NCBI GenBank assembly: GCA_902596065.1
Contig: CACJSL010000002.1
Span: 12,794-76,793 of the forward strand
Direction of reading: 5' to 3'
Origin: an uncultured Alphaproteobacteria bacterium
Lineage (GTDB): Bacteria; Pseudomonadota; Alphaproteobacteria; HIMB59; GCA-002718135
DNA length: 64,000 nucleotides
Shown here in pieces: positions 23,824 to 47,968 of the stretch; within the stretch, counting starts at the first letter, position 1, and every line of letters begins with the position of its first letter. The notes under the pieces were generated by a model, which saw nothing but the letters and a program-made list of their open reading frames with translations, was not told the DNA's origin and ran no database searches. The position numbers were made by a program, and so were the translations under genes.

Positions 23824-23856
23824 TGAAAAAAAAGATGATTTTTTTTTTAGAAAATG

Positions 23857-23867: not shown

Positions 23868-23884
23868 AAGTTTCAAATAACTAA

Positions 23885-24928: not shown

Positions 24929-24947
24929 TAGATAAAGAGAGAAAAAT

Positions 24948-27192: not shown

Positions 27193-27215
27193 ATATTTTT
27201 ATATGAAAAAATTAA

Positions 27216-27231
27216 TTGAATGTCTATTTAA
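27216..27231. promoter_or_regulatory. Operator/promoter palindrome copy d: TTGAAT-gtct-ATTtAA (one mismatch)
   Basis: It lies in the 58-bp gap between the GS-like gene (minus strand, ATG 27192) and the amidase (ATG 27251). Extended arms TTAATTGAAT / ATTTAATTAA match 9 of 10. It ends 19 nt before the amidase ATG. Confidence 0.42.
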
Positions 27232-27250
27232 TTAAACTAAAGTAATATCT

Positions 27251-28803: not shown

Positions 28804-29892
28804 ATGCCTAAATACTATGAAACTAAAAATTTTTTAGTTAAAACTTTAGGAGTGGCAATATTAACGGTTTTTATGGCCGTATTATTTTCCACTTCAAAGG
28901 TTTTTGCTGATGAGCCTGGAAGTGTTTTTCTTTGGGGCGGATATGATGATGATGGTCTGTTTGGATCATATGTAGAAGAACATGGATCACCTGAATACTC
29001 AACATTTGGTGATGCTGAAGAAGGTTTACAAAAATTAAAAGCTGGTTTTGAAGTTGATTTAGCTTGGCCATGCCAAGGTGAAATAGCTCGTTGGGTAAGA
29101 GCTGGAGTACTTGAACCATTGGACACTTCTCGAATAGATAACTGGGATGATATGTTCCCTGAAGTCAGAGATCTACCAAGCGGTATTGTGGATGGTAAGA
29201 ACTATTTTGCACCTATCGATTGGGGTGATACAACTTTATTTTACATGGCTGATCGAGTTCCGTGGATGAATGCTGATAATGAAAGTTTTGATCTAATGGA
29301 AGATCCAAGAGTAAAAGGTAAAGTTGGTATATTAGACTCTGCTGCTGACTCATTATTTTTAATGATGCATCATCTTGGAATTGATATCAGAGAAAAGGAT
29401 CAATTAACTAAAGCTGCTATTGATAAAGGTATCAATAAGTTTCGTGAAATGAGAGATAACGGACAAATTCGTGCGTTCTTCGGAGACACTTCTTCAATGG
29501 TAGAGGCGTTAGGTAACGAAGAAATAGATGTAGCTCTTGGTTGGAACGAAATTGCATGGAATGCTGGAGCGAAAATGATGCAACCTGCTAATGGAACAAT
29601 GACTTGGGCTTGCGGACTTGCAATTGTTAAAGGTGCAGACCTTGATAAAGCATATGCAATGATTAACGGAGCTACTAGTCCAGAAACTTCAGCTTACTTA
29701 CTTAGTGAGTGGGGTTATGGCCATTCAAACAAGAAAGGTTTTAGCACCATCACTGCTGATGAATTAGCTGAGCGTGGAGTAGCATCTAATCCTGCAGAAC
29801 ACCTTTCAAATGGAATGTTCTCTGTGATGCCTTCAGATGAAGTAACTGATTATATGGAAGCTCAATGGGCTGAAATGGTTGCTGGCGGTTAA
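28804..29892 (+). CDS. Periplasmic substrate-binding protein, PotD/PotF (family 1) type
   Basis: 362 aa with a signal peptide (...AVLFSTSKVFA/DEP) and a mature domain of the polyamine-type SBP pattern. Purine-rich SD (GGGGGT) precedes the ATG. Visibly richer in G+C and poorer in Lys/Asn/Ile codons than its neighbours. Confidence 0.8.
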   Translation: MPKYYETKNFLVKTLGVAILTVFMAVLFSTSKVFADEPGSVFLWGGYDDDGLFGSYVEEHGSPEYSTFGDAEEGLQKLKAGFEVDLAWPCQGEIARWVRAGVLEPLDTSRIDNWDDMFPEVRDLPSGIVDGKNYFAPIDWGDTTLFYMADRVPWMNADNESFDLMEDPRVKGKVGILDSAADSLFLMMHHLGIDIREKDQLTKAAIDKGINKFREMRDNGQIRAFFGDTSSMVEALGNEEIDVALGWNEIAWNAGAKMMQPANGTMTWACGLAIVKGADLDKAYAMINGATSPETSAYLLSEWGYGHSNKKGFSTITADELAERGVASNPAEHLSNGMFSVMPSDEVTDYMEAQWAEMVAGG

Positions 29893-29912: not shown

Positions 29913-29950
29913 AAAATAGCCTGCTCTCTTTCTGAGGCAGGCTATTTTTT
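29913..29950. terminator. Bidirectional intrinsic terminator between the convergent SBP and potA-like genes
   Basis: AAAA-TAGCCTGC-(12-nt loop)-GCAGGCTA-TTTTTT: an 8-bp GC-rich stem (29917-29924 / 29937-29944) flanked by an A run and a T run. The potA-like stop codon lies inside the 3' arm. Confidence 0.75.
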
Positions 29951-31024
29951 ATTTAATAAAGAAATATCTTCTAAACTAATACTTATAAAGCATTTATTAT
30001 TTTCAAAAGATTGATTATCAAAATGTTGTGAAGAAACAGTGATTAGTTGTTCTATTCCTTTCGTTTCAACGTAAAATCTAGTCATTTCTCCTAAATAAGA
30101 AGTCTGACTAATCTTAGCATCAAGACAGATATCCCAGTCAGATTTCACTTTAGAAATCATCATTGATTCTGGACGAACACTGCAAACAACATCAGAAGAA
30201 TTTGTTGCTATATTTAAATTATTTTTAATTTTAAACACTCCCAATTTTTCGATCGAAACGTTGATGAATTCTCCATCACTTGATTTAGTTTCAGCTTTAA
30301 GGAAATTTGTTTCACCAATAAAGTCACTTACAAATATATTTTTTGGATTCTTATAAAGTTCATTTGGTGCTGATAATTGCTGAATTTTTCCATCGTTCAT
30401 AACTGCAACTCTATCTGACATACTTATAGCTTCTTGTTGATCGTGAGTAACGAATACAAAAGTAATTCCAATATTTTTTTGAAGAGTTCTTAATTCTAAT
30501 TGCATTTCATCTCTTAGTTTTTTATCTAAAGCTCCAAGAGGTTCATCTAATAATAAAACTTTTGGTTGCCTTACTAATGCTCTTGCAAGAGCAACACGCT
30601 GTCTTTGACCACCAGATAATTGATTACTAAATCTTTCTTCATAGCCCTCAAGCTTAACCAATGAAAGAACTTCTTTAACGCGTTTACCTATTTCATCATT
30701 GCTTAAGCCAAGTTTTCTTAGTCCAAATTGAATATTTTTTTCTACGTTAAGGTGAGGAAAAATTGCATAGTTTTGAAAAACCATATTTGTAGGTCTTTTG
30801 TCTGGTGGTAATGCAGTAATATCTGTTCCATCAATTAATAGATTTCCTGAAGTAGGATATTCAAATCCTGCCAACAACCTTAACAATGTTGTCTTACCAC
30901 ATCCAGAAGGTCCTAAAAGAGAAAAAAATTCGCCTTCTTTAATTTCAAATGAAACATCATCAACTGCTTTTACATCTGCAAAGTGTTTTGAAATATTATT
31001 GATCTGTATAAATGAATTGTTCAT
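29942..31024 (-). CDS. ABC importer ATP-binding protein, PotA type
   Basis: 360 aa with Walker A GPSGCGKTT, LSGGQRQRVALARAL, LLLDEPLGALD, and a C-terminal TOBE-like regulatory domain. Confidence 0.88.
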   Translation of the reverse strand: MNNSFIQINNISKHFADVKAVDDVSFEIKEGEFFSLLGPSGCGKTTLLRLLAGFEYPTSGNLLIDGTDITALPPDKRPTNMVFQNYAIFPHLNVEKNIQFGLRKLGLSNDEIGKRVKEVLSLVKLEGYEERFSNQLSGGQRQRVALARALVRQPKVLLLDEPLGALDKKLRDEMQLELRTLQKNIGITFVFVTHDQQEAISMSDRVAVMNDGKIQQLSAPNELYKNPKNIFVSDFIGETNFLKAETKSSDGEFINVSIEKLGVFKIKNNLNIATNSSDVVCSVRPESMMISKVKSDWDICLDAKISQTSYLGEMTRFYVETKGIEQLITVSSQHFDNQSFENNKCFISISLEDISLLNKK

Positions 31025-31030: not shown

Positions 31031-31840
31031 TTATAATTTCATAGCTATATCTTTCTTTGCTTTACCTTGTCCAACATTTCTTAACCAGAATGCTAACAAA
31101 ACAATAAAAGTAGTAAAAACAATTATTACTGCTCCCAAAGCCAGTACGTGAGGTAACTTTTGAACAAATCTCATTTGACCCCACATATACATTGGAAGTG
31201 TTGCATCACTTCCAGTTAAAAAGAATGCCAGAATAAATTCATCAAAAGAAATTATGAAACTTAGAAGAAGAGCTGCAACTATTCCAGGCAAATACAATGG
31301 AAATGAAACTCTAAAAAATGTTCCCCATGCATTCTCTCCTAAATCTCTAGAGGCCTCTTCAAGTGAAAAATCAAAACCTTCGATACGAGCTATAAGTATT
31401 AACATTGCAAAAGGTGTACAAAATAAAGTGTGACCAATTGTGACTGGAACGAGACCTAATTTAAATCCAAGATTAACCCAAATTATAAGTATAGCTACAG
31501 CCAAAATAATTTCAGGTATCAAAAATGGCATCATTATACCTCCATAAGAGATCTTTTCCCCTCTAAATTTATATCGAGCAAATGCCTTTGCAGCAAAAAG
31601 TGCAATTGTTGTGCTAATGACACTCGCAACTACTCCTACTTTTATACTCGCCCATAGAGCCTTATGTAGATTTCTTTTTGACCACATCTCTTCGTAGTGT
31701 TCCGTTGTAAATCCAGCGAGAGGGAATGACATATAATTTGCGTCGTTAAAACTAAATATAGGCAAGAATAAAACTGGCACATACAGAAACCCAAAATATA
31801 AAAGAGTATAAATCAGTAATGTATTATTTTTTTCGTTCAT
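31031..31840 (-). CDS. ABC importer permease, PotC type
   Basis: 269 aa with 6 TMS and an EAA-loop region (LEEASRDLGENAWGTFFRVSFPL). Confidence 0.85.
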   Translation of the reverse strand: MNEKNNTLLIYTLLYFGFLYVPVLFLPIFSFNDANYMSFPLAGFTTEHYEEMWSKRNLHKALWASIKVGVVASVISTTIALFAAKAFARYKFRGEKISYGGIMMPFLIPEIILAVAILIIWVNLGFKLGLVPVTIGHTLFCTPFAMLILIARIEGFDFSLEEASRDLGENAWGTFFRVSFPLYLPGIVAALLLSFIISFDEFILAFFLTGSDATLPMYMWGQMRFVQKLPHVLALGAVIIVFTTFIVLLAFWLRNVGQGKAKKDIAMKL

Positions 31841-31842: not shown

Positions 31843-32727
31843 TTAAGTTAACCTTTGTGTTAGTTTTTTTGTTACATTCGAAACAATTATAGTTATGAGC
31901 ACAACAGTTGTTAACATAATTGTAGCTGAAGCTGCACCAAGAGGAATATTATTTATTTTTCCAAAATAAGCCTGAATCATATTTGAAAGCATGCGACCAT
32001 CAGTTCCTCCAAGTAAAGCTGGAGTTACATAATCACCTACTGTTGGAATAAATATGATTAATATTGCACCTATTACACCAGGTAACGATAATGGAAATGT
32101 AATTTTCCAAAATACTTCAAATCGAGAGAGCCCAAGATCCCTTCCAGCTTCAATAAAAGAAAAATCAATTTTTTCTAACGAAACATATAAAGGTAGTAAC
32201 GCAAACGCTGCCCATGCATGAGTTAAAGTAATAACTACTGCGGTCTCTGAATACATTAAGAATGTAAGAGGTTCGCTAAGAATTCCAGCATTAATCAATG
32301 AAGAGTTTATCACTCCTTTTGTTCCAAGGATAATTTTCCAAGAGAATACTCTTAATAAATAAGAAGTCCAAAAAGGTAAAGTAAGTAAAACAAGCCACAG
32401 CATTTTGTTTTTTTTGACATAAAAAGCGATGTAATAACAAACTGGGTATGCTGTTATAAGTGTAATTAGTGTTACGAGAAATGATATTTTAATTGATTTT
32501 ATTAGAAGTGTGACCAATAATTTTTTTTGAAAGAAATCAATATATCTTTGAAATGTAAAAGTATAATCAATCTCCATCATACTAACTTGAGTAAACATAC
32601 TAAAGCTCAGCATTAGGGCCATTGGGACGATCATAGCTAAAATAACTAAAATTAAAGCTGGTGATAATAAAGAATAGGCTTTAACATTATCATGTTTTGC
32701 ATAAATTTTTTTCAAAAAGCCTATCAT
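31843..32727 (-). CDS. ABC importer permease, PotB type
   Basis: 294 aa with 6 TMS and the EAA loop FIEAGRDLGLSRFEVFWKITFPL. Confidence 0.85.
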   Translation of the reverse strand: MIGFLKKIYAKHDNVKAYSLLSPALILVILAMIVPMALMLSFSMFTQVSMMEIDYTFTFQRYIDFFQKKLLVTLLIKSIKISFLVTLITLITAYPVCYYIAFYVKKNKMLWLVLLTLPFWTSYLLRVFSWKIILGTKGVINSSLINAGILSEPLTFLMYSETAVVITLTHAWAAFALLPLYVSLEKIDFSFIEAGRDLGLSRFEVFWKITFPLSLPGVIGAILIIFIPTVGDYVTPALLGGTDGRMLSNMIQAYFGKINNIPLGAASATIMLTTVVLITIIVSNVTKKLTQRLT

Positions 32728-32749: not shown

Positions 32750-33928
32750 TTATTCAATTAAAGATTTCAAACCTCTTTTATAAAGAGAATTTGCAATTAT
32801 TATTCTATGAATTTCACTTGTCCCTTCCCAAATACGATCGACTCGTAGTTCCCTATAGTATCTTTCAGCAACATTTTCCCTCATATATCCTCTTCCACCA
32901 AAAATTTGTACTGCACGGTCTGCAATTTTGTTAGCCATTTCAGAGGCTAATAATTTTATCATGGAACATTTTCCGTGTAAAATTTTAACATCTTGATTTG
33001 AATCATGAGCTTTGCATATTTCATAGAGCATTAATCTAGTTGAAGCTAATTCATTGACACAATCTGCAAGCATAAATTGTATTGCTTGATAATTTGATAT
33101 TTTATCTCCAAAAGACTCTCTTTCTTTTGCAAAAATTGTTGCTTCATCAATTAATCTCTCGGCTGCCCCACAGCATCTAGCTGCTATTCCTAATCTTTCA
33201 TGTCTAAACCAAGAATGTGTATAGTCCATTCCTATACCTTCATTACCTATTATATTTTTAGAAGGTATAGAAACATTATTAAAACGATAAATACTGTGAT
33301 GATGAGCATAAGTATGACTAAATTTAGGAGTATCTATTAATTCAATACCTTTTGTATCTTTATCAATTATAAAAAGTGAGTGTTTGTCTTTATTTTGACC
33401 AGATTTAATTTTTGCTTGTAAAAAGAAAAAGTTAGCAAGATTTGCACTAGTCACATACCATTTTTCACCATTGATTATGTATTGATCTCCCTTTTTTTCA
33501 GCTGTAGTTTCTATAGAGCCATCTACATCAGAGCCTGCACCTTTTTCAGTAATTGCATAACATTCTTTTTTTGTTCCATTTAAAAGTGGCTTTAAATAAT
33601 TTTCTTTTTGAAAGTCATTGAAATTTACTTCCATCCAATCTTGAGCTTCTGAAAAACACCAACATAAAGCATTAGTAACACGACCAAATTGTTCCCAAAT
33701 AATCATTTGTTCAAACATATTTAATCCCAGTCCTCCATTTTCTTTTGATATTCCCATACCAGGAAGTCCTAGAGAAATTGCAATATCTCGATGTTTTTTT
33801 TCTATATCTTTTGGTAATTCTCCATCATTTTTTTCAGCATGAACTTCCCAAGGTATAAGTTCATCATTAACAAATTTTCTTATTTTTTTTTGCCACTCTA
33901 AGGCCTTAGGGGTCATTCCACTATACAT
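32750..33928 (-). CDS. Acyl-CoA dehydrogenase family protein
   Basis: 392 aa with ACAD blocks (CYAITEKGAGSD, IFGGRGY, RVDRIWEGTSEIHR). It starts 2 nt after the TetR stop and ends 22 nt before potB. Confidence 0.85.
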   Translation of the reverse strand: MYSGMTPKALEWQKKIRKFVNDELIPWEVHAEKNDGELPKDIEKKHRDIAISLGLPGMGISKENGGLGLNMFEQMIIWEQFGRVTNALCWCFSEAQDWMEVNFNDFQKENYLKPLLNGTKKECYAITEKGAGSDVDGSIETTAEKKGDQYIINGEKWYVTSANLANFFFLQAKIKSGQNKDKHSLFIIDKDTKGIELIDTPKFSHTYAHHHSIYRFNNVSIPSKNIIGNEGIGMDYTHSWFRHERLGIAARCCGAAERLIDEATIFAKERESFGDKISNYQAIQFMLADCVNELASTRLMLYEICKAHDSNQDVKILHGKCSMIKLLASEMANKIADRAVQIFGGRGYMRENVAERYYRELRVDRIWEGTSEIHRIIIANSLYKRGLKSLIE

Positions 33929-33930: not shown

Positions 33931-34584
33931 CTATAAAATATTTTTAAATTGTTTTGGAAAATTTGACTTAATAAATTCAAAGCAAATTTTTTTTGACTGT
34001 ACTTTATTAAAAGTATCAGGATCTTCTAATTGATCTAACCATAAACCCATTATTAAAGCTTGAAAACCTCTAGCTATGTTTTTTTCAGATAATTTAACTT
34101 TTTCTTTTTTTATTAAATCTAAAAAGATATTTTCAGTAATTGATTGATAATATAAATCTCGCTCTTTACATATTTGATGATAAGCTGGTTTGTATTTGAT
34201 TTCGCTAAAAAATGTAAACCAGACAGCTATTTTTTCTCTGGTACATATTTTTTTACTAAAATCATTTTTTATAATTCCTATTATTTTTTTTCTAGGATCA
34301 TTCCCAGCTTTAGAAATACTCTTTTGAAATGAAAGCAGATATTCATTTGAAATAAATTTTAAAGTCTCAATTAATAGTAGTTCTTTACTTTTAAAATGGA
34401 AATTTACTATCCCTTGAGATAATCCTGCTCCTTGAGAGACATCTTGCATTGTTAATTGGTGTATTCCTTTTTTTGATAAATTCTTAATGGTTGAAGATAT
34501 CAATTTTAAATTACTATTTTTTTTATTTTCTAATCTAATATTTCTGTGTCTCATAAAATTATAAAAACAATGATAGTTTTTCAT
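33931..34584 (-). CDS. TetR-family transcriptional repressor, BetI-like subgroup
   Basis: N-terminal HTH (TMQDVSQGAGLSQGIVNFHFKSKELL). The C-terminal blocks VWFTFFSE...P and GFQALIMGLWLD resemble, from memory, E. coli BetI (AWLAFWASS...P, LAALIDGLWLR). An alternative start is the ATG at 34554. Confidence 0.8.
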   Translation of the reverse strand: MKNYHCFYNFMRHRNIRLENKKNSNLKLISSTIKNLSKKGIHQLTMQDVSQGAGLSQGIVNFHFKSKELLLIETLKFISNEYLLSFQKSISKAGNDPRKKIIGIIKNDFSKKICTREKIAVWFTFFSEIKYKPAYHQICKERDLYYQSITENIFLDLIKKEKVKLSEKNIARGFQALIMGLWLDQLEDPDTFNKVQSKKICFEFIKSNFPKQFKNIL

Positions 34585-34612: not shown

Positions 34613-34628
34613 TTGAATGGTCATTCAA
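34613..34628. promoter_or_regulatory. Operator/promoter palindrome copy b: TTGAAT-ggtc-ATTCAA (exact; extended TTGAATG-gt-CATTCAA)
   Basis: It lies in the 63-bp gap between the TetR gene (minus strand) and the divergent flavoprotein operon. It ends 19 nt before the ATG at 34648; TATAAG lies at 34634-34639. Confidence 0.6.
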
Positions 34629-34647: not shown

Positions 34648-36276
34648 ATGAACAAATCTAAATATGATGTTGCAATTATTGGTGGTGGTCATAATGGGCT
34701 CACCACAGCATGTTATTTAGCTAAAGCTGGACTAAAAGTAGTTGTTGTAGAAAAACATGATTATGTGGGGGGAGCAGCTGTAAGCAGAGAGCTTCATCCA
34801 GGTTGGACATATTCTAACTGTTCATACGTCTGTAGTTTGCTTAGACCTGAAATTTTTAGAGATTTAGAATTATCTAAACACGGTTTACAAATTATACCTT
34901 ACGAAGGTAGTGCAAGCATGCTTAATGATGGGAGATTTTACGCACATTACCAAGATCATGATTTAACTTATAGATCTATTGCTCAATTTTCCAAAAAAGA
35001 TGCTGAAGCCTATGATAGATTTGGAAAAGATGTGATGCGACAGTGTAAAATTATTAAACCTCTTTTAAAGATGACACCTCCTGATCCTACTTCATTTTCT
35101 CCAAAGGATATAATGGGTTTATTTGAATTTGCTAAATATTTTGCTGCAAAAGATGAGTTAGGAGGCTTAGGTGAGAAAGAAATATACGATACAATTCGTT
35201 TTTGGACAATGAGTGTTAGGGATTATCTCGAAGAATATTTTGAATCAGAAATTGTAAAAGTGCATTTAGCAGGGTCTGCTATCATTGGAACAGCTTTAGG
35301 CCCTTATTCTCCAGGCTCTGCATATGTATTGCTACATCATTATATGGGAGAAGTAGATGGTACTGTTGGAGCGTGGGGGTACGCTAGAGGAGGTATGGGT
35401 TCAATTACAAAAGCTATGGCATCTTCTTTTAAATCAAAAAATGGAGAAATTAAATCTGGTTCGCCAGTCACAAAAATTCTTATTAAAAATAATAAAAGTT
35501 ATGGTCTTGTTCTTGAAAATGGAGATGAAATTTATGCTGATAAAATAGTTTCAAACCTTGATGTCAAAAGAACCTTTTTAAAAGTTGTTGAGGAAAAAGA
35601 ATTACCCAATGATTTTTACAAAGCAGTAAAAAATTTTAAAATCAGAGGATCTTCAGGAAAGTTAAATATTGCTCTTGATGATCTACCTATTTGGAAAAGT
35701 ATTCCAGAGGGTGATCCAGCTGGAACAGGTGACTTACATATAACTCAGAATATTGAAGAGATGGAGGGAGCATATGATGATTGGAAAGATGGTAAGTGGT
35801 CTCAATTTCCATATGTTGATATGTGTATTCCAAGTATAAATGATCCCACTATGGCCCCTCAAGGAAAACACTATATGTCTGTTTTTATTCAATATGTTCC
35901 TTACAATTTAGCAGATGGAGGATGGACAGAAGAAAAGCGTCTTGAATTTGGCAAACATGTGATGGGTAGGATTGGAAATTATTCAACAAACTTCAATGAT
36001 ATCATTAATCATGCAGAAATTAGAACTCCTAAAGAATTAGAAGCTGAAGTTGGTTTAACAGAAGGAAATATTTTTCAAGGTGAGCTTACTATGGATCAGT
36101 TAATGTTTAACCGCCCTGTACCTGGTTATGCTCAATATAAAACGCCTATAAAAAATCTTTATATGTGTGGTTCTAGCACTCATCCTGGCGGAGGAGTAAT
36201 GGGAGCACCTGGAGCAAATGCTGCAAGAGAAATATTAAAAGATTTAAACAAAAAGATATCAACACATTATATATGA
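34648..36276 (+). CDS. CrtI/phytoene-desaturase-family (flavin amine-oxidase superfamily) FAD-dependent oxidoreductase, paralogue 1
   Basis: 542 aa. N-terminal YDVAIIGGGHNGLTTACYLAKAGLKVVVVEKHDYVGGAA and C-terminal LYMCGSSTHPGGGVMGAPGANAA. Confidence 0.8.
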   Translation: MNKSKYDVAIIGGGHNGLTTACYLAKAGLKVVVVEKHDYVGGAAVSRELHPGWTYSNCSYVCSLLRPEIFRDLELSKHGLQIIPYEGSASMLNDGRFYAHYQDHDLTYRSIAQFSKKDAEAYDRFGKDVMRQCKIIKPLLKMTPPDPTSFSPKDIMGLFEFAKYFAAKDELGGLGEKEIYDTIRFWTMSVRDYLEEYFESEIVKVHLAGSAIIGTALGPYSPGSAYVLLHHYMGEVDGTVGAWGYARGGMGSITKAMASSFKSKNGEIKSGSPVTKILIKNNKSYGLVLENGDEIYADKIVSNLDVKRTFLKVVEEKELPNDFYKAVKNFKIRGSSGKLNIALDDLPIWKSIPEGDPAGTGDLHITQNIEEMEGAYDDWKDGKWSQFPYVDMCIPSINDPTMAPQGKHYMSVFIQYVPYNLADGGWTEEKRLEFGKHVMGRIGNYSTNFNDIINHAEIRTPKELEAEVGLTEGNIFQGELTMDQLMFNRPVPGYAQYKTPIKNLYMCGSSTHPGGGVMGAPGANAAREILKDLNKKISTHYI

Positions 36277-37739
36277 AAAAATTTGATGTAATAATAATTG
36301 GAGGTGGACATAATGGTTTAGTTGCATCTTCATATCTAGCCAAAAAAGGTAAAAAAGTTTTGGTAATTGAAAAAAATGAACATGTTGGAGGATTAGCGGA
36401 ATATGCAAATTCACTGAGTTGTATTTCTCCTATCATTAAAAAAGAATTAAATATCAATATTCCTAATATTAAAGATACAGATTACATTATATCTCTTGAA
36501 GATAATCAAAATCATACAATCTTAGAGGATAAAAACGGTAAGCTATCTTTTGTAAAAACGAATGCTGATGAAGATGATCAGAAAACATTTTTATCAATTA
36601 TTAATAACTACAAATTATTTTCAAAAACTCTTGGATCTTTTATGCATCAAAAACCCCCAAGAGTTAAATCAGGAAAAAGGTCAGACTTATTTCAATTAAT
36701 GTCCATGGGATGGAAAATTAGAAAATTAGGTAAAAAAAATATGCGAGAGCTATTAAGAGTAATTGGTTTAAATATTGCTGATGATTTAGAGGATAATTTA
36801 AATAACGATAACTTAAAGGGTTTATTGTCCCATGAATCAGTTTTAGGCTCAAACTTGGGTCCTAGATCTCCTGGCTCAATATTGACTTTACTTTATAAGC
36901 AAGCAATCAATGATAATATTTTTAATTTGAAGAAGATAGAAGTTACAAACTATATTAATCAATTAGAAGATTGTTGTAAAAAAAATACAGTAGAAATAAT
37001 TAAATCCTCTGAAGTTAGAAAAATAGTAACTAAAAACAACTCTGTTACTGGTATTCAATTAAATAATAATGAGGTTATAGAATCAGCATGCGTTATGTCT
37101 AATGCTGACCCCAAAACAACTTACTTAAATTTATTAGGCGCAGAAATATTAGATACTGATTTTATTAGAAGAATTAAAAATTTTAGAAACAAGGGAAATG
37201 TTGCTAAACTTGAATTAGTTTTAGAAAATGAGATTAATATTAAAAATATTGATAAGAAAATGTATGGAAAATTTATTTACGCCCCAAATATAAAATACAT
37301 AGAACATGCATTTAATGCCAATAAGTATAATCATTATTCTAAAAATCCATGTTTGGAATTTTATGTTAATGATAACACTTTGTCAGCAAACATTTACTAT
37401 GTTCCATATTTAATTAATGCTAGTCATCAAGAAAATGAAATAATTGAAAAGTGTGTTGCTGTTTTAAGTAAATTTATTCCAGATATGAATATAAGAAAAC
37501 AAGAACTTATTACTCCAAATCAAATGGAGGAAAAATATAATATATCTGGTGGTCATTGGCATCATGGTGATTTAGAAATAGATCAATTACTAATGATGAG
37601 ACCTTTTTATGGATCTTCTCAATATTCAACTCCTGTTAACGGTTTATATTTATGCAGTGCTGGCACTCATCCTGGAGGAGGTTTAACTGGTATCAACGGT
37701 CTTAATGCAGCAAAAAAAATAGTAGAGGACTTAAAATAA
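36273..37739 (+). CDS. CrtI/phytoene-desaturase-family FAD-dependent oxidoreductase, paralogue 2
   Basis: 488 aa with FDVIIIGGGHNGLVASSYLAKKGKKVLVIEKNEHVGG and LYLCSAGTHPGGGLTGINGLNAA. Its ATG overlaps the upstream stop (ATGA). Confidence 0.75.
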   Translation: MKKFDVIIIGGGHNGLVASSYLAKKGKKVLVIEKNEHVGGLAEYANSLSCISPIIKKELNINIPNIKDTDYIISLEDNQNHTILEDKNGKLSFVKTNADEDDQKTFLSIINNYKLFSKTLGSFMHQKPPRVKSGKRSDLFQLMSMGWKIRKLGKKNMRELLRVIGLNIADDLEDNLNNDNLKGLLSHESVLGSNLGPRSPGSILTLLYKQAINDNIFNLKKIEVTNYINQLEDCCKKNTVEIIKSSEVRKIVTKNNSVTGIQLNNNEVIESACVMSNADPKTTYLNLLGAEILDTDFIRRIKNFRNKGNVAKLELVLENEINIKNIDKKMYGKFIYAPNIKYIEHAFNANKYNHYSKNPCLEFYVNDNTLSANIYYVPYLINASHQENEIIEKCVAVLSKFIPDMNIRKQELITPNQMEEKYNISGGHWHHGDLEIDQLLMMRPFYGSSQYSTPVNGLYLCSAGTHPGGGLTGINGLNAAKKIVEDLK

Positions 37740-38941
37740 TGAATAAAGAAAAAATTTCATATAAAAAACCTCTATTAGAAACACCTTTTCATAAAAGAAC
37801 ATCTGAGCATTGTTATGCAAATGATTGGTATAGATGGGCTGGTTACAAAGTTGCCAAAGAATACTCCTCAACTGAACTTGAATATACTTCAATGAGAAAC
37901 ACTGCAGGAGTAATAGATATAACTCCAATGCATAAATATGAAATTAAAGGTAAAGATGCAAAAAAATTTATTAATAAATTAATTACAAAAAATATTACTA
38001 ATATTCAATCTAATCAAGTAGCCTACGGCATATGGTGCAATGAAGATGGAATGGTGATTGATGATGGAACAATATTTTGCTTAAACGAAAATCATTATAG
38101 AATTTTTTGCGCTGAGAGAAATCTTAATTGGTTTTGTGATACAGCTACTGGATTTAATGTAACTATTGAAGATATAAGCTCATCAATTGCTGCTTTAGCT
38201 TTTCAAGGTCCTTTATCTTGTAAAATTTTAAATCTTTTAAAAGTAGAAAATATAGAAAACCTTAAACCTTTTCATTTTGATAATTACAAACTTGAAAATC
38301 AAAATGTCACAATTTCAAGAACAGGCTTTTCTGGAGATTTAGGTTATGAAATATGGTGTGACCCTTCTCAGGCTATCGATGTATGGGACAGCTTATTTAA
38401 GTTTAACAGAGATTATAAAGTACTTGCTGCTGGAATGAACTCACTTGAGATGGTGAGAATTGAAGCAGGATTTATCCAACCAAATGCAGATTTTATGTCT
38501 GCAGAACAGGCTTTAAGACCAAATAGAATGAGAAACCCATATGAATTAGGTTTAGGTTGGTTAGTAAATCTAGATAAAGAGTATTTTACTGGGAAACAGG
38601 CTTTAATTAGACACAAAGAAAAGGGGCCTGAAAAAAAACTTGTAGGATTGGATGTTGAGGGAGATAAGCCTGCTGTGGGATCTGTCCTCTATGATAATAG
38701 TAAGAAAAATATAGCCAAAGAAATTGGTATAGTGACAGCAGCAATGTGGTCCCCTGTTCTTAAATCTAATATTGCAATTGGATTTGTTAACAAAGAATAT
38801 TATAAGTTAGGATCTAATGTTTATGCTGAAATTTACCATCCAGAAGAATTGGATTATAGAAAAATTTGGGCTGAATGCAAAGTGGTAAAAAAGCAATTTT
38901 TTAACAATCCAAGAAGGAATGCTATTCCTGCATTTATATAG
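37739..38941 (+). CDS. GcvT-family aminomethyltransferase-like folate-binding protein
   Basis: 400 aa. TPFHKRT, AGVIDITPMHKYEIKGKDA, LAFQGP, ISRTGFSGDLGYEIW and LRIEAGF are typical GcvT/DmdA-family blocks. Its ATG overlaps the upstream stop (TAATG). Confidence 0.85.
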   Translation: MNKEKISYKKPLLETPFHKRTSEHCYANDWYRWAGYKVAKEYSSTELEYTSMRNTAGVIDITPMHKYEIKGKDAKKFINKLITKNITNIQSNQVAYGIWCNEDGMVIDDGTIFCLNENHYRIFCAERNLNWFCDTATGFNVTIEDISSSIAALAFQGPLSCKILNLLKVENIENLKPFHFDNYKLENQNVTISRTGFSGDLGYEIWCDPSQAIDVWDSLFKFNRDYKVLAAGMNSLEMVRIEAGFIQPNADFMSAEQALRPNRMRNPYELGLGWLVNLDKEYFTGKQALIRHKEKGPEKKLVGLDVEGDKPAVGSVLYDNSKKNIAKEIGIVTAAMWSPVLKSNIAIGFVNKEYYKLGSNVYAEIYHPEELDYRKIWAECKVVKKQFFNNPRRNAIPAFI

Positions 38942-38953: not shown

Positions 38954-40105
38954 ATGGAATTTAATCTTTCAGAAGAACAGAATCTTTTAATTGATACTAC
39001 TAAATCATTCGTAAAAGCAGAATTATTGCAACATGAAGAACTATTAGAAAAAACAAATAATTTACCAAAAGAATTATATGATGAAATTAAGAAAAAAAGT
39101 ATTGAAGCAGGCTTATATGCTTGCAATATGCCAACTGAACATGGTGGTGGTGGCTTAAATGCTTTTGATTTAACCTTGGTTGAAAAACATCTAGGATTTG
39201 CATCACTTGCTTTAGCAGAAATTGCTTGGAGACCACAAAATATCTTAATGGCCTGCGAAGGTGAACTAGTAGATGAATACTTAAAACCGGCTATTACTGG
39301 AGAGAGAAAAGATTGTATTGCTATGACTGAACCTGGCGCTGGTTCAGATTTAAGAGGTATGAAAACGAAAGCAGTTAAAGATAGAAATGATTGGATTATT
39401 AATGGAACAAAACATTTTATATCTAATGCTCACATCTCTGACTTTGTTGTTCTTTTTGCTTCAACAGGTGAAGATGATAAAGGTAGAAATTCACTTTCTT
39501 GTTTTTTAGTTGATTTAAAACAAAAAGGAGTTGAAGTTGCTAAAGGATATGACTGTGTCTCTCACAGAGGATATGTAAATAATATTATACATTTTAATGA
39601 TTGTAGAATTCCTGGAAAAAATATTCTTGGAGAAAAAGATAAGGGTTTTGAATTAATGAATGTTTGGTTGGAAGCTACTAGATTAACTGTTGCGGCTACA
39701 TCGGTATCTAGAGCAGAAAGAGCTTTTGATATCGCTTTGGATTGGTCAGCTAATAGAAAACAATTTGGAAAAGTCATTGGAAAATTTCAAGGTGTTTCAT
39801 TTAAACTAGCTGATATGGCTACAGAAATTAAATTAGCAAATTTAATGTTAATGGAATCAGCTTGGAAGATTGATCAAAAAACATTAACTTCCCAAGATGC
39901 TGCAATGACAAAATTATTTTGCACTGAAATGTTAAGCAGAGTTTCAGATGAAGCAATTCAAATTTGTGGTGGAATGGGATTAATGGCAGATATACCTCTT
40001 GAAAGAATATGGCGTGATGCAAGAATAGAAAGAATTTGGGAAGGGACAAGTGAAATTCAACGGCATATTATTTCACGTTCTTTATTAAGACCCCTTGGAG
40101 CATAA
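38954..40105 (+). CDS. Acyl-CoA dehydrogenase
   Basis: 383 aa with EFNLSEEQ, CIAMTEPGAGSDL, QFGKVIGKFQGV, ICGGMGL and RIERIWEGTSEIQR. Confidence 0.9.
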   Translation: MEFNLSEEQNLLIDTTKSFVKAELLQHEELLEKTNNLPKELYDEIKKKSIEAGLYACNMPTEHGGGGLNAFDLTLVEKHLGFASLALAEIAWRPQNILMACEGELVDEYLKPAITGERKDCIAMTEPGAGSDLRGMKTKAVKDRNDWIINGTKHFISNAHISDFVVLFASTGEDDKGRNSLSCFLVDLKQKGVEVAKGYDCVSHRGYVNNIIHFNDCRIPGKNILGEKDKGFELMNVWLEATRLTVAATSVSRAERAFDIALDWSANRKQFGKVIGKFQGVSFKLADMATEIKLANLMLMESAWKIDQKTLTSQDAAMTKLFCTEMLSRVSDEAIQICGGMGLMADIPLERIWRDARIERIWEGTSEIQRHIISRSLLRPLGA

Positions 40106-40108
40106 TCT

Positions 40109-42145
40109 TTGAACTTAAAAAAACTTTTTAGACCAAAAAGCTTGGCTATAATAGGAGGCTATTGGGCAGACTTTGTTTATGATGGTAACAAAACTATTGG
40201 TTATAAAGGTAAAGTTTGGCATATAAATCCTTCACGAAAAAGCACCAAAAGAAAAAAATATTATAAAAATATTAAAGATCTACCAGAAATACCTGATTGT
40301 GTTTATCTTGCCGTTTCAAGAGATCAAACTGTAAAATTAATTAAAGATATATCTAATATGGGTGTTGGAGGAACAGTTTGCCTGGCTTCAAGATTTTCTG
40401 AACTTAATTCAAAAGAAGGAAAAGATAAAACTAATGAACTTATAAAAAACTCTGGTAAGATGCCTTTTCTGGGACCAAATTGTTATGGATTTATCAATTA
40501 TTTAGATAAAATTTCTGTATGGTCAGATCAAGTTTCTGGGAAACCAACAAAAAAAGGTGTTGCTATTATATGTCAGAGCGGAACAATTGGTAATACTATT
40601 AGTTTTAACAATAGATCTTTGCCTATTGGCTACATAATTTCTTTAGGTAATCAATCAAAAATAACCATTGAAGATGCAATTAATTATGCCCTTGATGATA
40701 ACAGAGTAACCGCCATTGGTATTTACGCCGAAAGTTTTACTAATACTGCAAAATTAATTAAAGTATTTAAAAAATCTAAGTTAAAGAACATACCTATAGC
40801 TATAGTCAAAGTAGGCAGATCTAAAATTGCATCTAAAACAATTCTAACACATACTGGCTCTCTTAGTGGGAAAGAAGATATTTATGATTCTTTGTTTCAA
40901 AGAATGGGGGTAGCAAAATGCAATACATTAGGCGAATTATGTGAAATTTTAAAATTATTTCATACACATGGAGTTTTAAAAGATGATCAAATTTCAATAA
41001 TGGGACCATCTGGAGGAGATATGGCTATGATAGGAGATGTGGCAGAATCTTTATCATTAAAATTTGGCAAAATACCTCCAAAAATAAAAAATGATTTAAA
41101 AAAAGTTAATCACCCAAGCGTGATAATATCAAATCCTTTTGATTTACAAACATACAATTGGAATGATCCTGAGAATCTAGAAAAAACATTTAAATTAATA
41201 TTCAAAACAAATTTTGCTTTAAATGCACTGATGTTAGATCTTCCAAATGTAGAAGATTGTGATACTGAAGAGTGGGATGCAATAGTTGATAAATTTATAA
41301 AATCTTCAAAAATAAAAAAAAATGGAGCAATTATTTCTTCACTTTCAGATACTCTTCCAAAATATTTAAGAGAAAAATGTCTAAAGTATAACGTTGTTCC
41401 TCTTCAAGGCATGTCAGAAAGCTTATTAGCTATAAGTAATTCAATAAAAATTGGCAAAGTATGGAAGAATTTTGCTGGTATAAAAATTCCTGAGAAAATA
41501 CCAAATCTTAAAAAGAAAATAAAAACATATTCAGAATATGAATCAAAGTTAATTTTAAAGAAAAACAAAATACCTATTCCAAAATCCTTAGTTACAAATA
41601 AAAAGAATATATTGCGTGATTCTAAAAAAATTGGATTTCCTTTAGTGGCAAAAATAAATTCAAATACAGTTTTTCATAAAACTGAAATTGGAGGTGTTGT
41701 AACAAATATTAATAGTGAAAAAGAATTAAAGAAAAAAACAAATAAATTTACTGGTAATATCTTAATTGAAAAAATGATAACTGATAATGTCTTTGAAATG
41801 ATTATAGGAATAAAAAACGATAATGAATTTGGTCCTACTATAATTTTAGGAGCTGGAGGAATTTATACTGAATTATTTAAAGATACAACCACCCTACTCT
41901 TACCTTTAACTAAAAGAATGATTATGGAAGAGATAAAAAAACTAAAATTTAGTAAAATATTATTTGGTTTTAGAGGAAAAAATAGTGGTGATTTAGATGC
42001 TTTAGTTTGTTCAATATTAAAAATTGCTAAATTTGCTGAAAATAATTATGATAAAATTTCAGAAGTTGATATAAATCCATTAATAGTTTGTAAAAAAGGC
42101 AAAGGGGTGTTTGCTGTAGATGCATTAATACATTATTTTAAATAA
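40109..42145 (+). CDS. ADP(NDP)-forming acyl-CoA synthetase, fused alpha/beta (CoA-binding + ligase-CoA + ATP-grasp domains)
   Basis: 678 aa. N-terminal LFRPKSLAIIGG CoA-binding fold, GPNCYGFIN, and a C-terminal ATP-grasp (E.ESK.IL....IPIP..., GFPLVAKI). TTG start 3 nt after the ACAD stop. Confidence 0.8.
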   Translation: MNLKKLFRPKSLAIIGGYWADFVYDGNKTIGYKGKVWHINPSRKSTKRKKYYKNIKDLPEIPDCVYLAVSRDQTVKLIKDISNMGVGGTVCLASRFSELNSKEGKDKTNELIKNSGKMPFLGPNCYGFINYLDKISVWSDQVSGKPTKKGVAIICQSGTIGNTISFNNRSLPIGYIISLGNQSKITIEDAINYALDDNRVTAIGIYAESFTNTAKLIKVFKKSKLKNIPIAIVKVGRSKIASKTILTHTGSLSGKEDIYDSLFQRMGVAKCNTLGELCEILKLFHTHGVLKDDQISIMGPSGGDMAMIGDVAESLSLKFGKIPPKIKNDLKKVNHPSVIISNPFDLQTYNWNDPENLEKTFKLIFKTNFALNALMLDLPNVEDCDTEEWDAIVDKFIKSSKIKKNGAIISSLSDTLPKYLREKCLKYNVVPLQGMSESLLAISNSIKIGKVWKNFAGIKIPEKIPNLKKKIKTYSEYESKLILKKNKIPIPKSLVTNKKNILRDSKKIGFPLVAKINSNTVFHKTEIGGVVTNINSEKELKKKTNKFTGNILIEKMITDNVFEMIIGIKNDNEFGPTIILGAGGIYTELFKDTTTLLLPLTKRMIMEEIKKLKFSKILFGFRGKNSGDLDALVCSILKIAKFAENNYDKISEVDINPLIVCKKGKGVFAVDALIHYFK

Positions 42146-42149
42146 TTAT

Positions 42150-42926
42150 ATGAATAAACCTATAAAAACTAAAATTGAAGGATCAATATTAGAAGTAACA
42201 ATTGATCGTCCAAAAGCGAACGCTATAGACTCTAAAACTAGCATAATATTAGGAGATATTTTTGCTGATTTTAGAGATAATCCTAAACTTAAAGTTGCTA
42301 TAATAACTGGAGGTGGTGAAAAATTTTTTTCTGCTGGATGGGATCTTAAAGCTGTAAATGAAGGAGAAGCTGCTGATGCAGATTATGGCGTAGGTGGATT
42401 TGGAGGATTGCAAGAATTACCAAATATGAATAAACCTATTATTTCTGCTGTTAATGGTATTGCGTGTGGAGGTGGTTTTGAAATCATGATTTCAGCAGAT
42501 ATTATTATTGCTGCAGATCACGCTACTTTTGCTTTACCTGAAATTAATGTTGGTGTCATAGCTGATGCGGCAACTATAAAACTAAGAAGAAGAATTCCCT
42601 ATCATGTAGCTGTCGAATTTTTAATGACAGGTAGGTGGATGGATGTCAAAGAAGCAAAGCACTGGGGTTTAGTTAATGAAATAGTTGATAAAAAAGATTT
42701 ATTAAAAAGATCCTGGGAAATTGCTGATAAAATTTCAAAAGGGCCTAATTTAATATATTCATCAATCAAAGAAGTTTTAAGAGAAACAGAAAATGAAAAG
42801 GAGATACCTTCTTTTGATATTCTTCGATCCTTAGAAACTGTAAAGAAAGTTTATGGAAGTGAAGACTTAAAAGAAGGTGCCTCTTCTTTTGTAAAAAAAA
42901 CTGATCCAAATTGGAAAGATAAATAG
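42150..42926 (+). CDS. Crotonase-superfamily hydratase, CaiD (carnitinyl-CoA dehydratase)-like
   Basis: 258 aa. The blocks [52 protein letters not shown] and [12 protein letters not shown] closely track the E. coli CaiD sequence as I recall it ([53 protein letters not shown]). Confidence 0.8.
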   Translation: [258 protein letters not shown]

Positions 42927-42947: not shown

Positions 42948-42968
42948 TTGAATGCTCATTCAGTGAAT
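42948..42968. promoter_or_regulatory. Operator/promoter palindrome copy c: TTGAAT-gctc-ATTCAg, plus a third half-site (ATTCA-g-TGAAT)
   Basis: It lies in the 56-bp gap between the crotonase stop (42926) and the aminotransferase ATG (42983). The 16-bp core 42948-42963 ends 19 nt before the ATG. An overlapping second palindrome spans 42958-42968. Confidence 0.5.
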
Positions 42969-42982: not shown

Positions 42983-44359
42983 ATGAAAAACGATTATATT
43001 AGTGAAATTCATAAAAAAGATAGATTAGTTCTTCATCCTTATGAAGATACAAATACAAGAGGAACATATAACCGTAAACTAATTACAAAATCAGATAATA
43101 TTTATTTATATGATGAAAATGGGACTGAATATATTGATGGTCCTGGAGGAATGTGGTGTAATAATATTGGCCACGGCAATAAGGAAATTGGAGAAGCCGT
43201 AAAAAAACAACTTGAAAAATTAGAATATTGTAGTCCTTTTTCAGAATCTACTGAAATATCAGCTGAATTAGCTTCGGTTTTATCAGAGTTATCTCCCGGT
43301 GATCTGAATACAGTTTTTTTTACCACCGATGGATCAACTGCAAATGATACTGCTTTAAGATTTATAATGTTTTATAATAATATGCTAGGTCGTCCTAATA
43401 AAAAACATATCATTACAAGAAATAAAGCTTATCACGGCAGTACCTATTTAACAGGATCAATAACTGGGAAAGATAGAGAAAAAAATAATTTTGATTTTGA
43501 AAAAGATTTTATACATCATTTAAGTGCTCCTTTAGAGTATAGAAGAAAAGATAATCAAACTGTGGAAGAGTTTTGTGATGATCTAGTGAAAGAATTTGAA
43601 AATAAAATTCTTGAGCTTGGTTCTGAAAATGTCGCTGCTTTTATAGCAGAACCTATTATGGCATCTGGAGGATGTATTGTTCCACCAGAGGGTTATTTAA
43701 AAAGAATTTGGGAAATTTGTAAAAAAAATGATGTACTTTTTATATCTGATGAAGTTGTTACTGGCTTTGGAAGAATAGGTCATTTTTTTGCTTCAGAAAA
43801 AGTATTTGGAGTAACACCTGACATTATAACTTGTGCTAAAGGTATCACTTCAGGATATATGCCTTTGGGTGCTGTTTTATTTTCAGATAAATTGCTTAAT
43901 GATCTTAAAAATGATTCTGCTCTTTTTTTTCATGGATATACATATTCTGGTCACCCCGCTTGTTGTGCAGCAGCATTAAAGAATATAGAAATTATTAAAA
44001 GAGATAAAATTCTTGAACATGTTCAAAATATAGAACCTTACTTTCATCAACAATTAAAAAAATTATACGATTTACCAATTGTAGGAGATATAAGAGGCAA
44101 AGGACTTATGGCTGGAATAGAATGCGTGATTAATAAAGACAGTAAAGAGGCTCTAGTATTAGATAAAGCTATAGGTTCTAGAATTGATGAAGAGTCATTA
44201 AAATTGGGATTAATAATTCGTCCACTTTATCATATATGTGTTTTATCTCCTGCTTTAATTATTTCAAAAAATCAAATTGATACACTTGTAGATAAATTAT
44301 ATTTAGCAATTAAAAATACAATAACACAATTAGAAGTAGAGGGCTTATGGAAAGGTTAA
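42983..44359 (+). CDS. Class III (omega) pyridoxal-phosphate aminotransferase
   Basis: 458 aa with AYHGSTY, FIAEPIMASGG, LFISDEVVTGFGRIGHFF and TCAKGITSGYMPLG (PLP-binding Lys). Confidence 0.9.
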   Translation: MKNDYISEIHKKDRLVLHPYEDTNTRGTYNRKLITKSDNIYLYDENGTEYIDGPGGMWCNNIGHGNKEIGEAVKKQLEKLEYCSPFSESTEISAELASVLSELSPGDLNTVFFTTDGSTANDTALRFIMFYNNMLGRPNKKHIITRNKAYHGSTYLTGSITGKDREKNNFDFEKDFIHHLSAPLEYRRKDNQTVEEFCDDLVKEFENKILELGSENVAAFIAEPIMASGGCIVPPEGYLKRIWEICKKNDVLFISDEVVTGFGRIGHFFASEKVFGVTPDIITCAKGITSGYMPLGAVLFSDKLLNDLKNDSALFFHGYTYSGHPACCAAALKNIEIIKRDKILEHVQNIEPYFHQQLKKLYDLPIVGDIRGKGLMAGIECVINKDSKEALVLDKAIGSRIDEESLKLGLIIRPLYHICVLSPALIISKNQIDTLVDKLYLAIKNTITQLEVEGLWKG

Positions 44360-47028: not shown

Positions 47029-47071
47029 TTGTCTAATTCCTTATTCTGAGATACATCAAATTATATTAAAA

Positions 47072-47962: not shown

Positions 47963-47968
47963 ATTTTT

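Follow-up and report, generated by a model that had tools for sequence, protein, structure and literature searches.

What reaction is carried out by two related flavoproteins and a GcvT-family protein whose genes overlap one another in the genome of an uncultured alphaproteobacterium? The question is raised by a 64,000-nucleotide stretch of contig CACJSL010000002.1 (positions 12,794 to 76,793), hereafter called the window, which has a G+C content of about 29%. By folate-coupled N-demethylation, osmolytes and methylated amines are converted to energy and one-carbon (C1) units in many bacteria, among them the ocean's most abundant heterotrophs. To our knowledge, all known flavin-dependent enzymes of this kind use a DAO-type flavoprotein. 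The window encodes two flavoproteins of the CrtI/amine-oxidase superfamily, here called A and B, and a GcvT-family protein, here called T. Judging from sequence comparison and gene context, we consider it rather probable that the three form a heteromeric, tetrahydrofolate (THF)-coupled oxidative N-demethylase of a methylated omega-amine.

All three genes lie on the + strand. Flavoprotein A (34648-36276, 542 aa) is of the PYROXD2 type and is the presumed catalytic subunit; flavoprotein B (36273-37739, 488 aa), a rapidly evolving paralogue of A, is presumed to be a partner that is non-catalytic or sets specificity; and T (37739-38941, 400 aa) is a free-standing protein and the presumed C1 acceptor module. 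The TGA stop of A overlaps the ATG start of B in the sequence ATGA at 36273-36276, and the TAA stop of B overlaps the ATG start of T in the sequence TAATG at 37737-37741. The list of open reading frames (ORFs) of the window contains no small ORF between or after the three genes. In a scan of 33.8-47.2 kb, no terminator-like site was found on the + strand between 34648 and 46555; promoter-like sites in the same region numbered 65 against 80 expected, a scan that is uninformative in such AT-rich DNA. IIGGGHNGL is found close to the N-terminus and THPGGG close to the C-terminus of both flavoproteins, which are 29% identical over about 530 residues (E 2e-63). In other words, A and B are true paralogues. 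They differ in composition: lysine, asparagine and isoleucine make up 31.1% of B and 19.6% of A, and the gene GC contents are 27.3% and 34.7%, respectively. An earlier note on this DNA, made from the letters alone, had given the same ORF coordinates and overlaps, the paralogy of A and B, and the family of T, all of which our ORF, alignment and domain checks confirmed; its remark that B is richer in these three residues and more diverged holds as well, both in composition and in the comparison between phyla given below.

Is the arrangement a peculiarity of this genome? B orthologues from four plasmids were aligned, and the alignment was scanned against one genome per species of bacteria and archaea. 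This gave no fewer than 593 relatives; the 80 best loci (numbered with an L below) were retained and profile-scanned with the window and plasmid genes. Two CrtI-like paralogues are present in 80/80 loci where the contig allows, and in 75 of the 80, from at least five phyla, the two paralogues and T stand side by side. The misses of T that were checked (L041, L051, L072 and L083) lie at contig ends, and L035 has a truncated T. The trio occurs in Alphaproteobacteria (SAR11-like single-cell genomes, Rhizobiales, Rhodobacterales, Kiloniellales, and Rhodospirillales), Gammaproteobacteria (Steroidobacteraceae, Woeseiaceae, Halieaceae, and Porticoccaceae), Betaproteobacteria (Burkholderiaceae), Bacteroidota, Acidobacteriota, Chloroflexota, and Dormibacterota. 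The three genes are always adjacent but occur in different orders (A-B-T, B-A-T, or with T divergent from the pair). The junction from A to B is overlapping in 46 of 56 loci, with a maximum of 17 nt, and the distance from B to T is at most 20 nt in 48 of 53 loci. The trio arrangement is not a product of chance; it is a conserved unit. The clusters at 90% identity to which the window proteins A, B, and T belong hold 766, 227, and 458 sequences, respectively.

Several variants of the arrangement should be mentioned here. In a Pseudomonadales locus (L037, 6974-19000), two full trios stand in tandem, one A-B-T and the other B-A-T, with an extra GcvT-like gene upstream. A conserved ORF of about 81 aa directly follows T in Rhizobiaceae and Paracoccaceae (12 loci by profile; for example, L002 14788-15039, L004 14786-15031, and L086 4335-4580) and is absent from the window; its product, which calls to mind the small subunits of sarcosine oxidase, might be a fourth subunit. 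On the Paracoccaceae contig L086, T and the small ORF are immediately followed by a gene of the MttB superfamily (quaternary-amine methyltransferase type, 4723-6276). Two apparent A-B fusions, P0104 (904 aa, L087) and P0115 (890 aa, L086), were rejected as frameshift artefacts, since their contigs are ridden with frameshifts and T is also split on both.

To which family does A belong? It matches the Pfam family Amino_oxidase (PF01593) with 63.4 bits over residues 17-379 (cut-off 19.8). Among the NCBIfam models the best for both A and B is CrtO, the beta-carotene ketolase (cut-off 1000), which gives 287 bits for A and 117 for B; the crtI_fam model gives 112 and 70 bits against 238.1. In fact, every carotenoid cut-off is missed by both proteins (besides these two, those applied were 500-580 for CrtD and 587 for carotenoid isomerase). 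The N-terminal GxGxxG...E and C-terminal G-x-H-P-G-x-G motifs of A and B align with those of Pantoea and Thermus CrtI, and A is 22-24% identical to true CrtI proteins of Pantoea, Thermus, and Sphingomonas plasmids. No solved structures of close relatives of A or B were found. The AlphaFold model of A (predicted local distance difference test score, pLDDT, 77) has as its best Foldseek matches CrtD (4rep, E 1.4e-24) and CrtI (4dgk), at 16-18% identity, and next to them the amine oxidases NicA2, MAO, and putrescine oxidase, at 12-18%. A scan of the window from 1 to 57.8 kb revealed no carotenoid genes such as crtB, crtE, or crtY, whereas the true crtI of Pantoea is located between crtY and crtB. 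A and B have a CrtI-type fold and yet stand outside the true carotenoid desaturases.

A much closer relative of A is found in mammals. PYROXD2 is a human mitochondrial protein linked to an infantile metabolic disorder. The comparison of A was made only with protein-database entries named PYROXD2 by their source. A is 38% identical to mouse PYROXD2 (P0224) over its full length (548 columns, E 1e-130); the corresponding value for B is only 24%, and mouse PYROXD2 and a bacterial singleton are 32% identical. The motifs HHxMG, GAWxYxxGGMG, GNIF(Q/H)G, and THPGGGVMGA are common to A and PYROXD2. In a neighbor-joining tree of 65 sequences, rooted on CrtI and with 100 bootstraps, all A sequences, PYROXD2, and a few bacterial singletons form a clade that excludes B in 99 of the 100 replicates. 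On these grounds, A is the bacterial counterpart of PYROXD2. No reaction is assigned to PYROXD2 in two studies (PMC9286311; PMC13352909), nor in the abstract of a third (PMC8777681). In humans, trimethylamine in urine, dimethylamine in plasma, and N2-acetyl-N6,N6-dimethyllysine show an association with the PYROXD2 locus (PMC9286311; PMC13352909).

Single PYROXD2-like flavoproteins that lack B and T also occur in bacteria (L005, 9992-11590; L090, 7995-9611; L026, about 8066; and L080, about 19520). One of these singletons, in Roseovarius, lies near genes for BKACE, choline dehydrogenase, aldehyde dehydrogenase, and Rieske proteins. Because these neighbours are of the betaine type, the wider PYROXD2-like family may also be tied to betaine-type catabolism.

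The second flavoprotein has followed a different course. In B, the match to PF01593 covers only the first 28 or so residues (28.1 bits), and past its N-terminus B matches generic dinucleotide-binding models only. Identities between the window proteins and those of other phyla are 57-64% for A, 40-47% for T, and 29-37% for B; B evolves about twice as fast as A. In the tree, the B clade is long-branched and monophyletic in 93 of 100 bootstraps, and an intermediate position between it and the A clade is taken by the second subunits of Acidobacteriota, Vicinamibacterales, Chloroflexota, and Dormibacterota. Two motifs, GxGxxG...E at the N-terminus and THPGGG at the C-terminus, are conserved in B. 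The segment that reads EGNIFQG in A and GGNIFHG in PYROXD2 is GGHWHHG in B. A further motif, GGxG, which we infer contacts flavin adenine dinucleotide (FAD), is kept in every aligned A (RGGMG), in PYROXD2 (QGGMG), and in CrtI (RGGTG). In the window B it is replaced by LKKIEV (residues 217-222 or thereabouts), and it is likewise replaced in close relatives; it is altered in the B of L043, deleted in that of L039, and retained in other B proteins. Besides the window B, the proteins with the motif lost or deleted are those of L007, L008, L043, and L039. B of the window lineage is probably without a working flavin site, and the conversion of B to a pseudo-enzyme may be under way in different clades independently. 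The asymmetry agrees with A being catalytic and its partner being able to do without a flavin site.

T contains both domains of its family in full, GCV_T (188.5 bits, E 1.7e-55) and GCV_T_C (40.9 bits, E 2e-10), and aligns end to end with the Thermotoga maritima GcvT structure 1woo. It keeps the aspartate of the IDD motif (D109, equivalent to D96 of 1woo), the motif SRTGFSGDLGYE, and R240 of RIEAG, and the SRTG..G..GYE and R-I-E-A motifs are retained, residues which we take, from known T-protein structures, to serve catalysis and folate binding. Its best NCBIfam match is the C-terminal half of trimethylamine N-oxide demethylase, Tdm (250 bits against a cut-off of 1100, positions 387-734 of 763), and it matches the Tdm structure 9q59 with E 1.5e-39. 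The models of GcvT itself give 228 bits (PRK00389, cut-off 300) and 182 bits (TIGR00528, cut-off 235.85), DmdA gives 157 bits (structure 3tfh, E 2.9e-27), and positions 628-972 of soxA give 164 bits (cut-off 1164). The scanned part of the window yielded neither gcvH nor gcvP; the other loci were scanned without profiles of these genes. Because the GcvT scores fall below their cut-offs and no gcvH or gcvP was found there, T appears distinct from the glycine-cleavage T protein, and its conserved residues mark it as a putatively competent folate module. Nearly all of its 150 best relatives are free-standing, and the long ones are a tandem GcvT duplication, a helix-turn-helix fusion, or Tdm-like. 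In SAR11 Ia, a GcvT-like gene adjoins metF (PMC3160333). The GcvT-like genes SAR11_1265 and SAR11_1303 of SAR11 Ia were considered as members of the same system and rejected, their gene contexts being different.

With what is the trio expressed? A TetR-type regulator is encoded divergently from A on the - strand (33931-34584). It has TetR_N and BetI-type TetR_C_6 domains and scores 101.7 bits (cut-off 201.3) and 97.6 bits (cut-off 118) against BetI models, and we regard it as BetI-like but apparently not BetI. In the 63-nt spacer between this gene and A lies a perfect palindrome, TTGAATGGTCATTCAA (34613-34628, an exact match). One copy with a single mismatch immediately precedes the aminotransferase gene (42948-42963); another, at 20648-20663, is located where a GbcA-like Rieske gene and a DAO-type flavoprotein gene start in opposite directions. 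A similar box at 27216-27231 is found in the gap that separates a glutamine-synthetase-like gene from an amidase gene. Because this last box has two mismatches, we include the pair in the regulon only tentatively. The consensus, TTGAAyGnnCrTTCAA, has 17 matches with no more than one mismatch in the 1.70 Mb of the window and the loci together, against about 0.3 expected by chance on our own estimate, and all 17 are intergenic and stand in promoters of A-B-T, the aminotransferase, the ABC (ATP-binding cassette) importer, or the Rieske/DAO pair. The box lies upstream of A in L002, L006, L007, L023, L041, L050, and L073 and in aminotransferase|ABC-permease promoters in L002, L004, L023, L050, L056, and L058; L033 is also among the loci that have it. 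Its carriers are Rhizobiales, one Rhodospirillaceae genome, and SAR11-like genomes. It is probably the operator of the BetI-like regulator, and since it is common to their promoters, A-B-T, the omega-aminotransferase, and the PotD-type importer seem to be co-regulated in distant lineages. In other words, SAR11-like bacteria and Rhizobiales appear to have one regulon in common.

From these observations, the following pathway can be proposed. The substrate would enter through the co-regulated PotD-type ABC importer. By oxidising the N-CH3 bond, A would convert a methylated omega-amine to an iminium ion, as its superfamily, its partner, and its context suggest, and B would pair with A as a structural or specificity subunit, as would fit their co-inheritance, translational coupling, and asymmetry. 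T would bind THF and capture the C1 unit of the iminium ion or of formaldehyde as 5,10-methylene-THF, so that no free formaldehyde would be released; this step is modelled on the conserved residues of T and on analogy with Tdm, SoxA, and DMGDH. The demethylated primary amine would pass to the co-regulated omega-aminotransferase, then to an aldehyde dehydrogenase and coenzyme A (CoA)-dependent steps, and the C1 unit would be disposed of by PurU and the general folate pathway. Where present, GbcA-like Rieske and old yellow enzyme (OYE)-type enzymes would strip the earlier methyl groups of a betaine and leave the last one to A-B-T. The BetI-like TetR protein would repress the set through the TTGAAyGnnCrTTCAA operator. 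The substrate class is probably a mono-N-methyl, possibly also a dimethyl, omega-amino compound; it could be an N-methylated diamine or polyamine, or else a betaine-derived omega-amino acid such as 4-methylaminobutyrate.

The earlier note had arrived at the core of this proposal, namely that the trio oxidises an N-methyl or N-alkyl amine and hands the C1 unit to THF with B as a non-catalytic or specialised partner. Comparative genomics (classification, co-occurrence, and context) supports the first part, with the chemistry itself being what we infer, and the second gains support from the fast evolution of B and the loss of GGxG in the window lineage. Of the checks it had suggested, classification by sequence profiles and structure leaves A and B below all carotenoid cut-offs and puts A in the PYROXD2 clade rather than among carotenoid desaturases, and the co-occurrence survey finds the trio together in nearly all loci, that is, conserved as a unit. 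It had known of no characterised enzyme with this subunit make-up. A full-text literature search, the coverage of which is thin for subscription journals, likewise found no published description of the trio.

The genes around the trio in the window bear on the nature of the substrate. The locus sits in an amine-catabolic island of about 32 kb (16.6-49 kb) with housekeeping genes on either side. Upstream, 16635-28726 holds a polyamine-type set that includes two DAO-type flavoproteins, two glutamine-synthetase-like ligases, and an ABC exporter-type protein. In this part lie the GbcA-like Rieske oxygenase gene (19395-20663, - strand; 332 bits against the glycine betaine monooxygenase GbcA model, cut-off 670) and, divergent from it, a DAO-type flavoprotein gene (20644-22017, +). 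Members of the polyamine-type set are agmatine deiminase (23885-24928), an N-carbamoylputrescine amidase-like CN hydrolase (24948-25817), a glutamine-synthetase-like gamma-glutamyl-amine ligase (25807-27192, -), and an amidase (27251-28726, +). The ABC importer is of the PotD/PotF type and consists of a binding protein (28804-29892, +; nearest PotF, PotD, and Lmo0810), an ATPase (29942-31024, -; PotA 382 bits, PhnT2 381 bits), and two permeases (31031-31840 and 31843-32727, -). The binding protein is only distantly related to PotF/PotD (E 1e-16 to 1e-19), a distance that gives no identification of the substrate. A gene for the acyl-CoA dehydrogenase ACAD2 (32750-33928, -) adjoins the TetR gene.

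Downstream of T, the string of + strand genes continues with a CaiA-like acyl-CoA dehydrogenase (38954-40105), an ADP-forming acyl-CoA ligase (40109-42145), a CaiD-like enoyl-CoA hydratase (42150-42926; best match crotonobetainyl-CoA hydratase, 289 bits, cut-off 500), the class-III omega-aminotransferase (42983-44359; Aminotran_3 315 bits, PRK07036 664 bits and above cut-off), an MFS transporter (44369-45556), a GNAT acetyltransferase (45537-45983), and, at its end, an HD-domain protein (45986-46555). The solved structures nearest to the aminotransferase are pyruvate-dependent putrescine, polyamine, and gamma-aminobutyrate (GABA) transaminases. The HD protein matches PhnZ/TmpB-type oxygenases only in an HD motif of about 40 residues (36-40 bits, cut-offs 215-300). 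A thioesterase (46561-47028, -), which matches the C-terminal domain of carnitine 3-dehydrogenase, and a beta-keto-acid cleavage enzyme, BKACE (47072-47962, +; 327 bits), are possibly part of the same catabolic island. In total, 38954-42926 and 46561-48976 hold carnitine/gamma-butyrobetaine-like enzymes around the trio, including an NADPH-dependent reductase. Because all of these score below the equivalog cut-offs, the set suggests an analogue of the carnitine/gamma-butyrobetaine pathway for a different substrate.

Similar neighbours are found across the 80 loci: TetR regulators in 37, class-III aminotransferases in 32, ABC importer genes in about 30, Rieske alpha subunits in 27, aldehyde dehydrogenases in 14, ADP-forming CoA ligases in 13, glutamine-synthetase-like ligases in 12, the formyl-THF deformylase PurU in 11 (mostly Acidobacteriota), and carnitine-dehydrogenase-like enzymes in eight. 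The aminotransferases belong to two subfamilies, and the gene often immediately precedes A or follows T. The Rieske proteins resemble GbcA (304-332 bits, below the same cut-off of 670), and OYE-type flavoproteins of 680 aa recur beside the trio. The order ACAD2-TetR-(aminotransferase)-A-B-T-CoA ligase is also seen in Kiloniella, Woeseiaceae, Steroidobacteraceae, and Porticoccaceae loci; the acyl-CoA dehydrogenase, CoA ligase, and hydratase families recur by the trio in L006, L012, L014, L017, and L056, and the HD protein recurs in L006, L007, and L012-L017. In Acidobacteriota and relatives (L053-L085), a minimal cassette consists of one or more APC-family permeases, T on the opposite strand, two flavoproteins, and often PurU. 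It is without aminotransferase or ABC importer, its second flavoprotein is intermediate between the A and B types, and housekeeping genes follow the Acidobacteriota cassette.

Several points weigh against an N-demethylase. The neighbourhoods mix polyamine-type with carnitine/butyrobetaine-type enzymes and so leave the substrate unpinned. No fusion of T to a flavoprotein was found among the 150 best relatives of T in 1.84 billion representatives. The top two structural matches of the A model are carotenoid desaturases, and the model itself is only moderate, being poor at residues 471-516, which hold the family-specific EGNIFQGE motif. The association of the PYROXD2 locus with methylated amines is confounded with the neighbouring gene HPS1, which one study favours (PMC9286311). 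The survey was seeded on B and thus says nothing on how often A-type proteins occur without B and T, and singletons of the A type do exist (L005 and L090). Finally, the characterised enzymes of the CrtI family that we know of all act on isoprenoid C-C bonds.

One rival reading takes A and B for desaturases or isomerases of carotenoids or other lipids, with a merely coincidental linkage to T. CrtO as the best NCBIfam match and CrtD and CrtI as the best structural matches would favour it. It is already contradicted and has hardly any probability left in our estimation: the CrtO and crtI_fam cut-offs are missed, true CrtI proteins show the low identity given above, crtB, crtE, and crtY were not found in the scanned part of the window, the linkage to T holds in at least five phyla, and the operator is common to the aminotransferase and the amine importer. 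If A and B do act on amines, they might be enzymes of the polyamine-oxidase type that cleave secondary amines such as spermidine, norspermidine, or carboxyethyl derivatives, with T as an accessory that does not capture C1 units. The amine-oxidase fold is common to polyamine oxidases, and the window is in effect a polyamine island, with its PotD-type importer, two gamma-glutamyl-amine ligase homologues, amidase, agmatine deiminase, N-carbamoylputrescine amidase, GNAT protein, and omega-transaminase. However, cleavage of an unmethylated polyamine yields no C1 unit and would leave both the folate-module linkage in 75 of 80 loci and PurU unexplained, and we regard this reading as doubtful.

The strongest competitor, though still an unlikely one, concerns T. 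Like DmdA, it might transfer a methyl group from a sulfonium or quaternary ammonium compound directly to THF to give 5-methyl-THF, and A/B would oxidise another bond of the product, for example, in a secondary amine or a thioether. DmdA itself is a free-standing GcvT-family methyltransferase that T matches with the scores given above, DmdB, DmdC, and DmdD have counterparts of similar type in the CoA ligase, acyl-CoA dehydrogenase, and hydratase encoded downstream, and the betaine-type neighbours (GbcA-like, MttB, and carnitine-like) hint at quaternary substrates. On the contrary, GcvT and the C-terminal half of Tdm are closer to T than DmdA is, we know of no precedent for direct methyl transfer from quaternary ammonium to THF, and the translational coupling of B and T, together with the strict three-way adjacency, better fits one enzyme than two steps. 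In another reading, A/B would be no amine oxidase but an oxidoreductase of the folate pool (for example, oxidising 5-methyl-THF made by T) or some other redox partner of T. We know of no folate-substrate precedent in the superfamily, and we find the idea improbable, less so than carotenoid chemistry and more so than polyamine cleavage. The GcvT-like gene beside metF in SAR11 Ia does show that methyl-THF oxidation can be linked to such transferases (PMC3160333), whereas the human PYROXD2 locus is associated with methylated amines and not with folates (PMC9286311; PMC13352909). What probability remains after the N-demethylase reading and these four we assign to chemistry outside all of them.

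How would an A-B-T N-demethylase compare with known systems? Heterotetrameric sarcosine oxidase (SoxBDAG) is likewise a multi-subunit flavoenzyme with packed genes that oxidises an N-methyl group and traps methylene-THF with a GcvT-like domain, and its alpha subunit has a dinucleotide-binding domain at which the amine is not oxidised and which may be analogous to B. However, its catalytic subunit is of the DAO type (A matches soxB with 29.9 bits over residues 3-48 only, cut-off 529), its folate domain is fused to SoxA, and it has gamma and delta subunits, which are absent from the window trio. DMGDH, SARDH, DMGO, and 4-methylaminobutanoate oxidase also couple flavin-dependent N-demethylation to THF through a GcvT-type domain, and the last yields GABA, a type of product suited to an omega-aminotransferase. 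All four are single DAO-GcvT polypeptides, whereas here the flavoprotein is from another superfamily and duplicated, and the folate protein is separate. In Tdm, the C-terminal GcvT-like half, which is the best-scoring curated relative of T, conjugates formaldehyde with THF; the formaldehyde comes from a fused metal-dependent N-terminal domain, which T lacks, and no flavoprotein is involved. LSD1/KDM1, polyamine oxidases, and MAO resemble A in superfamily (PF01593) and fold, and LSD1 oxidises N-methyl groups to formaldehyde, but the identities are only 12-18% and these enzymes are single catalytic subunits that release free aldehyde. CrtI, CrtD, and CrtO offer the closest solved fold and the closest curated sequence models; they differ from A and B in their 16-24% identity, the missed cut-offs, the carotenoid gene context that is absent from the scanned 1-57.8 kb, and the substrates, those proposed here being water-soluble amines and not isoprenoids. 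PYROXD2 differs from A in having no known partner of the B or T type, and its link to methylated amines is statistical, from genome-wide association studies. By analogy, the trio would work like sarcosine oxidase, the DMGDH/SARDH/DMGO enzymes, and Tdm, passing C1 units to folate through a GcvT module, and yet would belong to none of them, because of its other flavoprotein superfamily, its unequal duplicated subunits, and its separate folate module.

A further step, which we put forward only as a tentative possibility, is that A-B-T is the bacterial prototype of the PYROXD2 family and represents a new class of heteromeric folate-coupled N-demethylase, built from a CrtI-type flavoprotein and a degenerate paralogue. 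Already as an N-demethylase, the module would be a second, independently evolved solution, with a catalytic subunit of the CrtI/PYROXD2 lineage, a pseudo-enzyme-like partner, and a detachable folate protein. On the wider reading, the class would span many phyla and be abundant in ocean Alphaproteobacteria, and human PYROXD2 would be a mitochondrial oxidative demethylase of methylated amines of the methyl-lysine or butyrobetaine type, which would explain the metabolite associations. This would be the first testable biochemical hypothesis for PYROXD2, and several cultured, genetically tractable carriers of the trio exist. Cultured candidates are Shinella zoogloeoides XJ20, Rhizobium sp. SL42, Peteryoungia aggregata DSM 1111, Kiloniella laminariae DSM 19542, Parasedimentitalea marina W43, and a member of Ensifer.

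Two features of the window that lie apart from the locus may be added. The sole RNA gene detected in the window by Rfam and tRNA scans is a tRNA-Leu gene (anticodon TAA) at 2561-2645 on the - strand, far from the trio. A homocysteine S-methyltransferase gene (BHMT-like, 54508-55407) adjoins a GMC oxidoreductase gene (55427-57058), the cluster members of which are named choline dehydrogenase, and the two form a second methyl-metabolism pair in the window.

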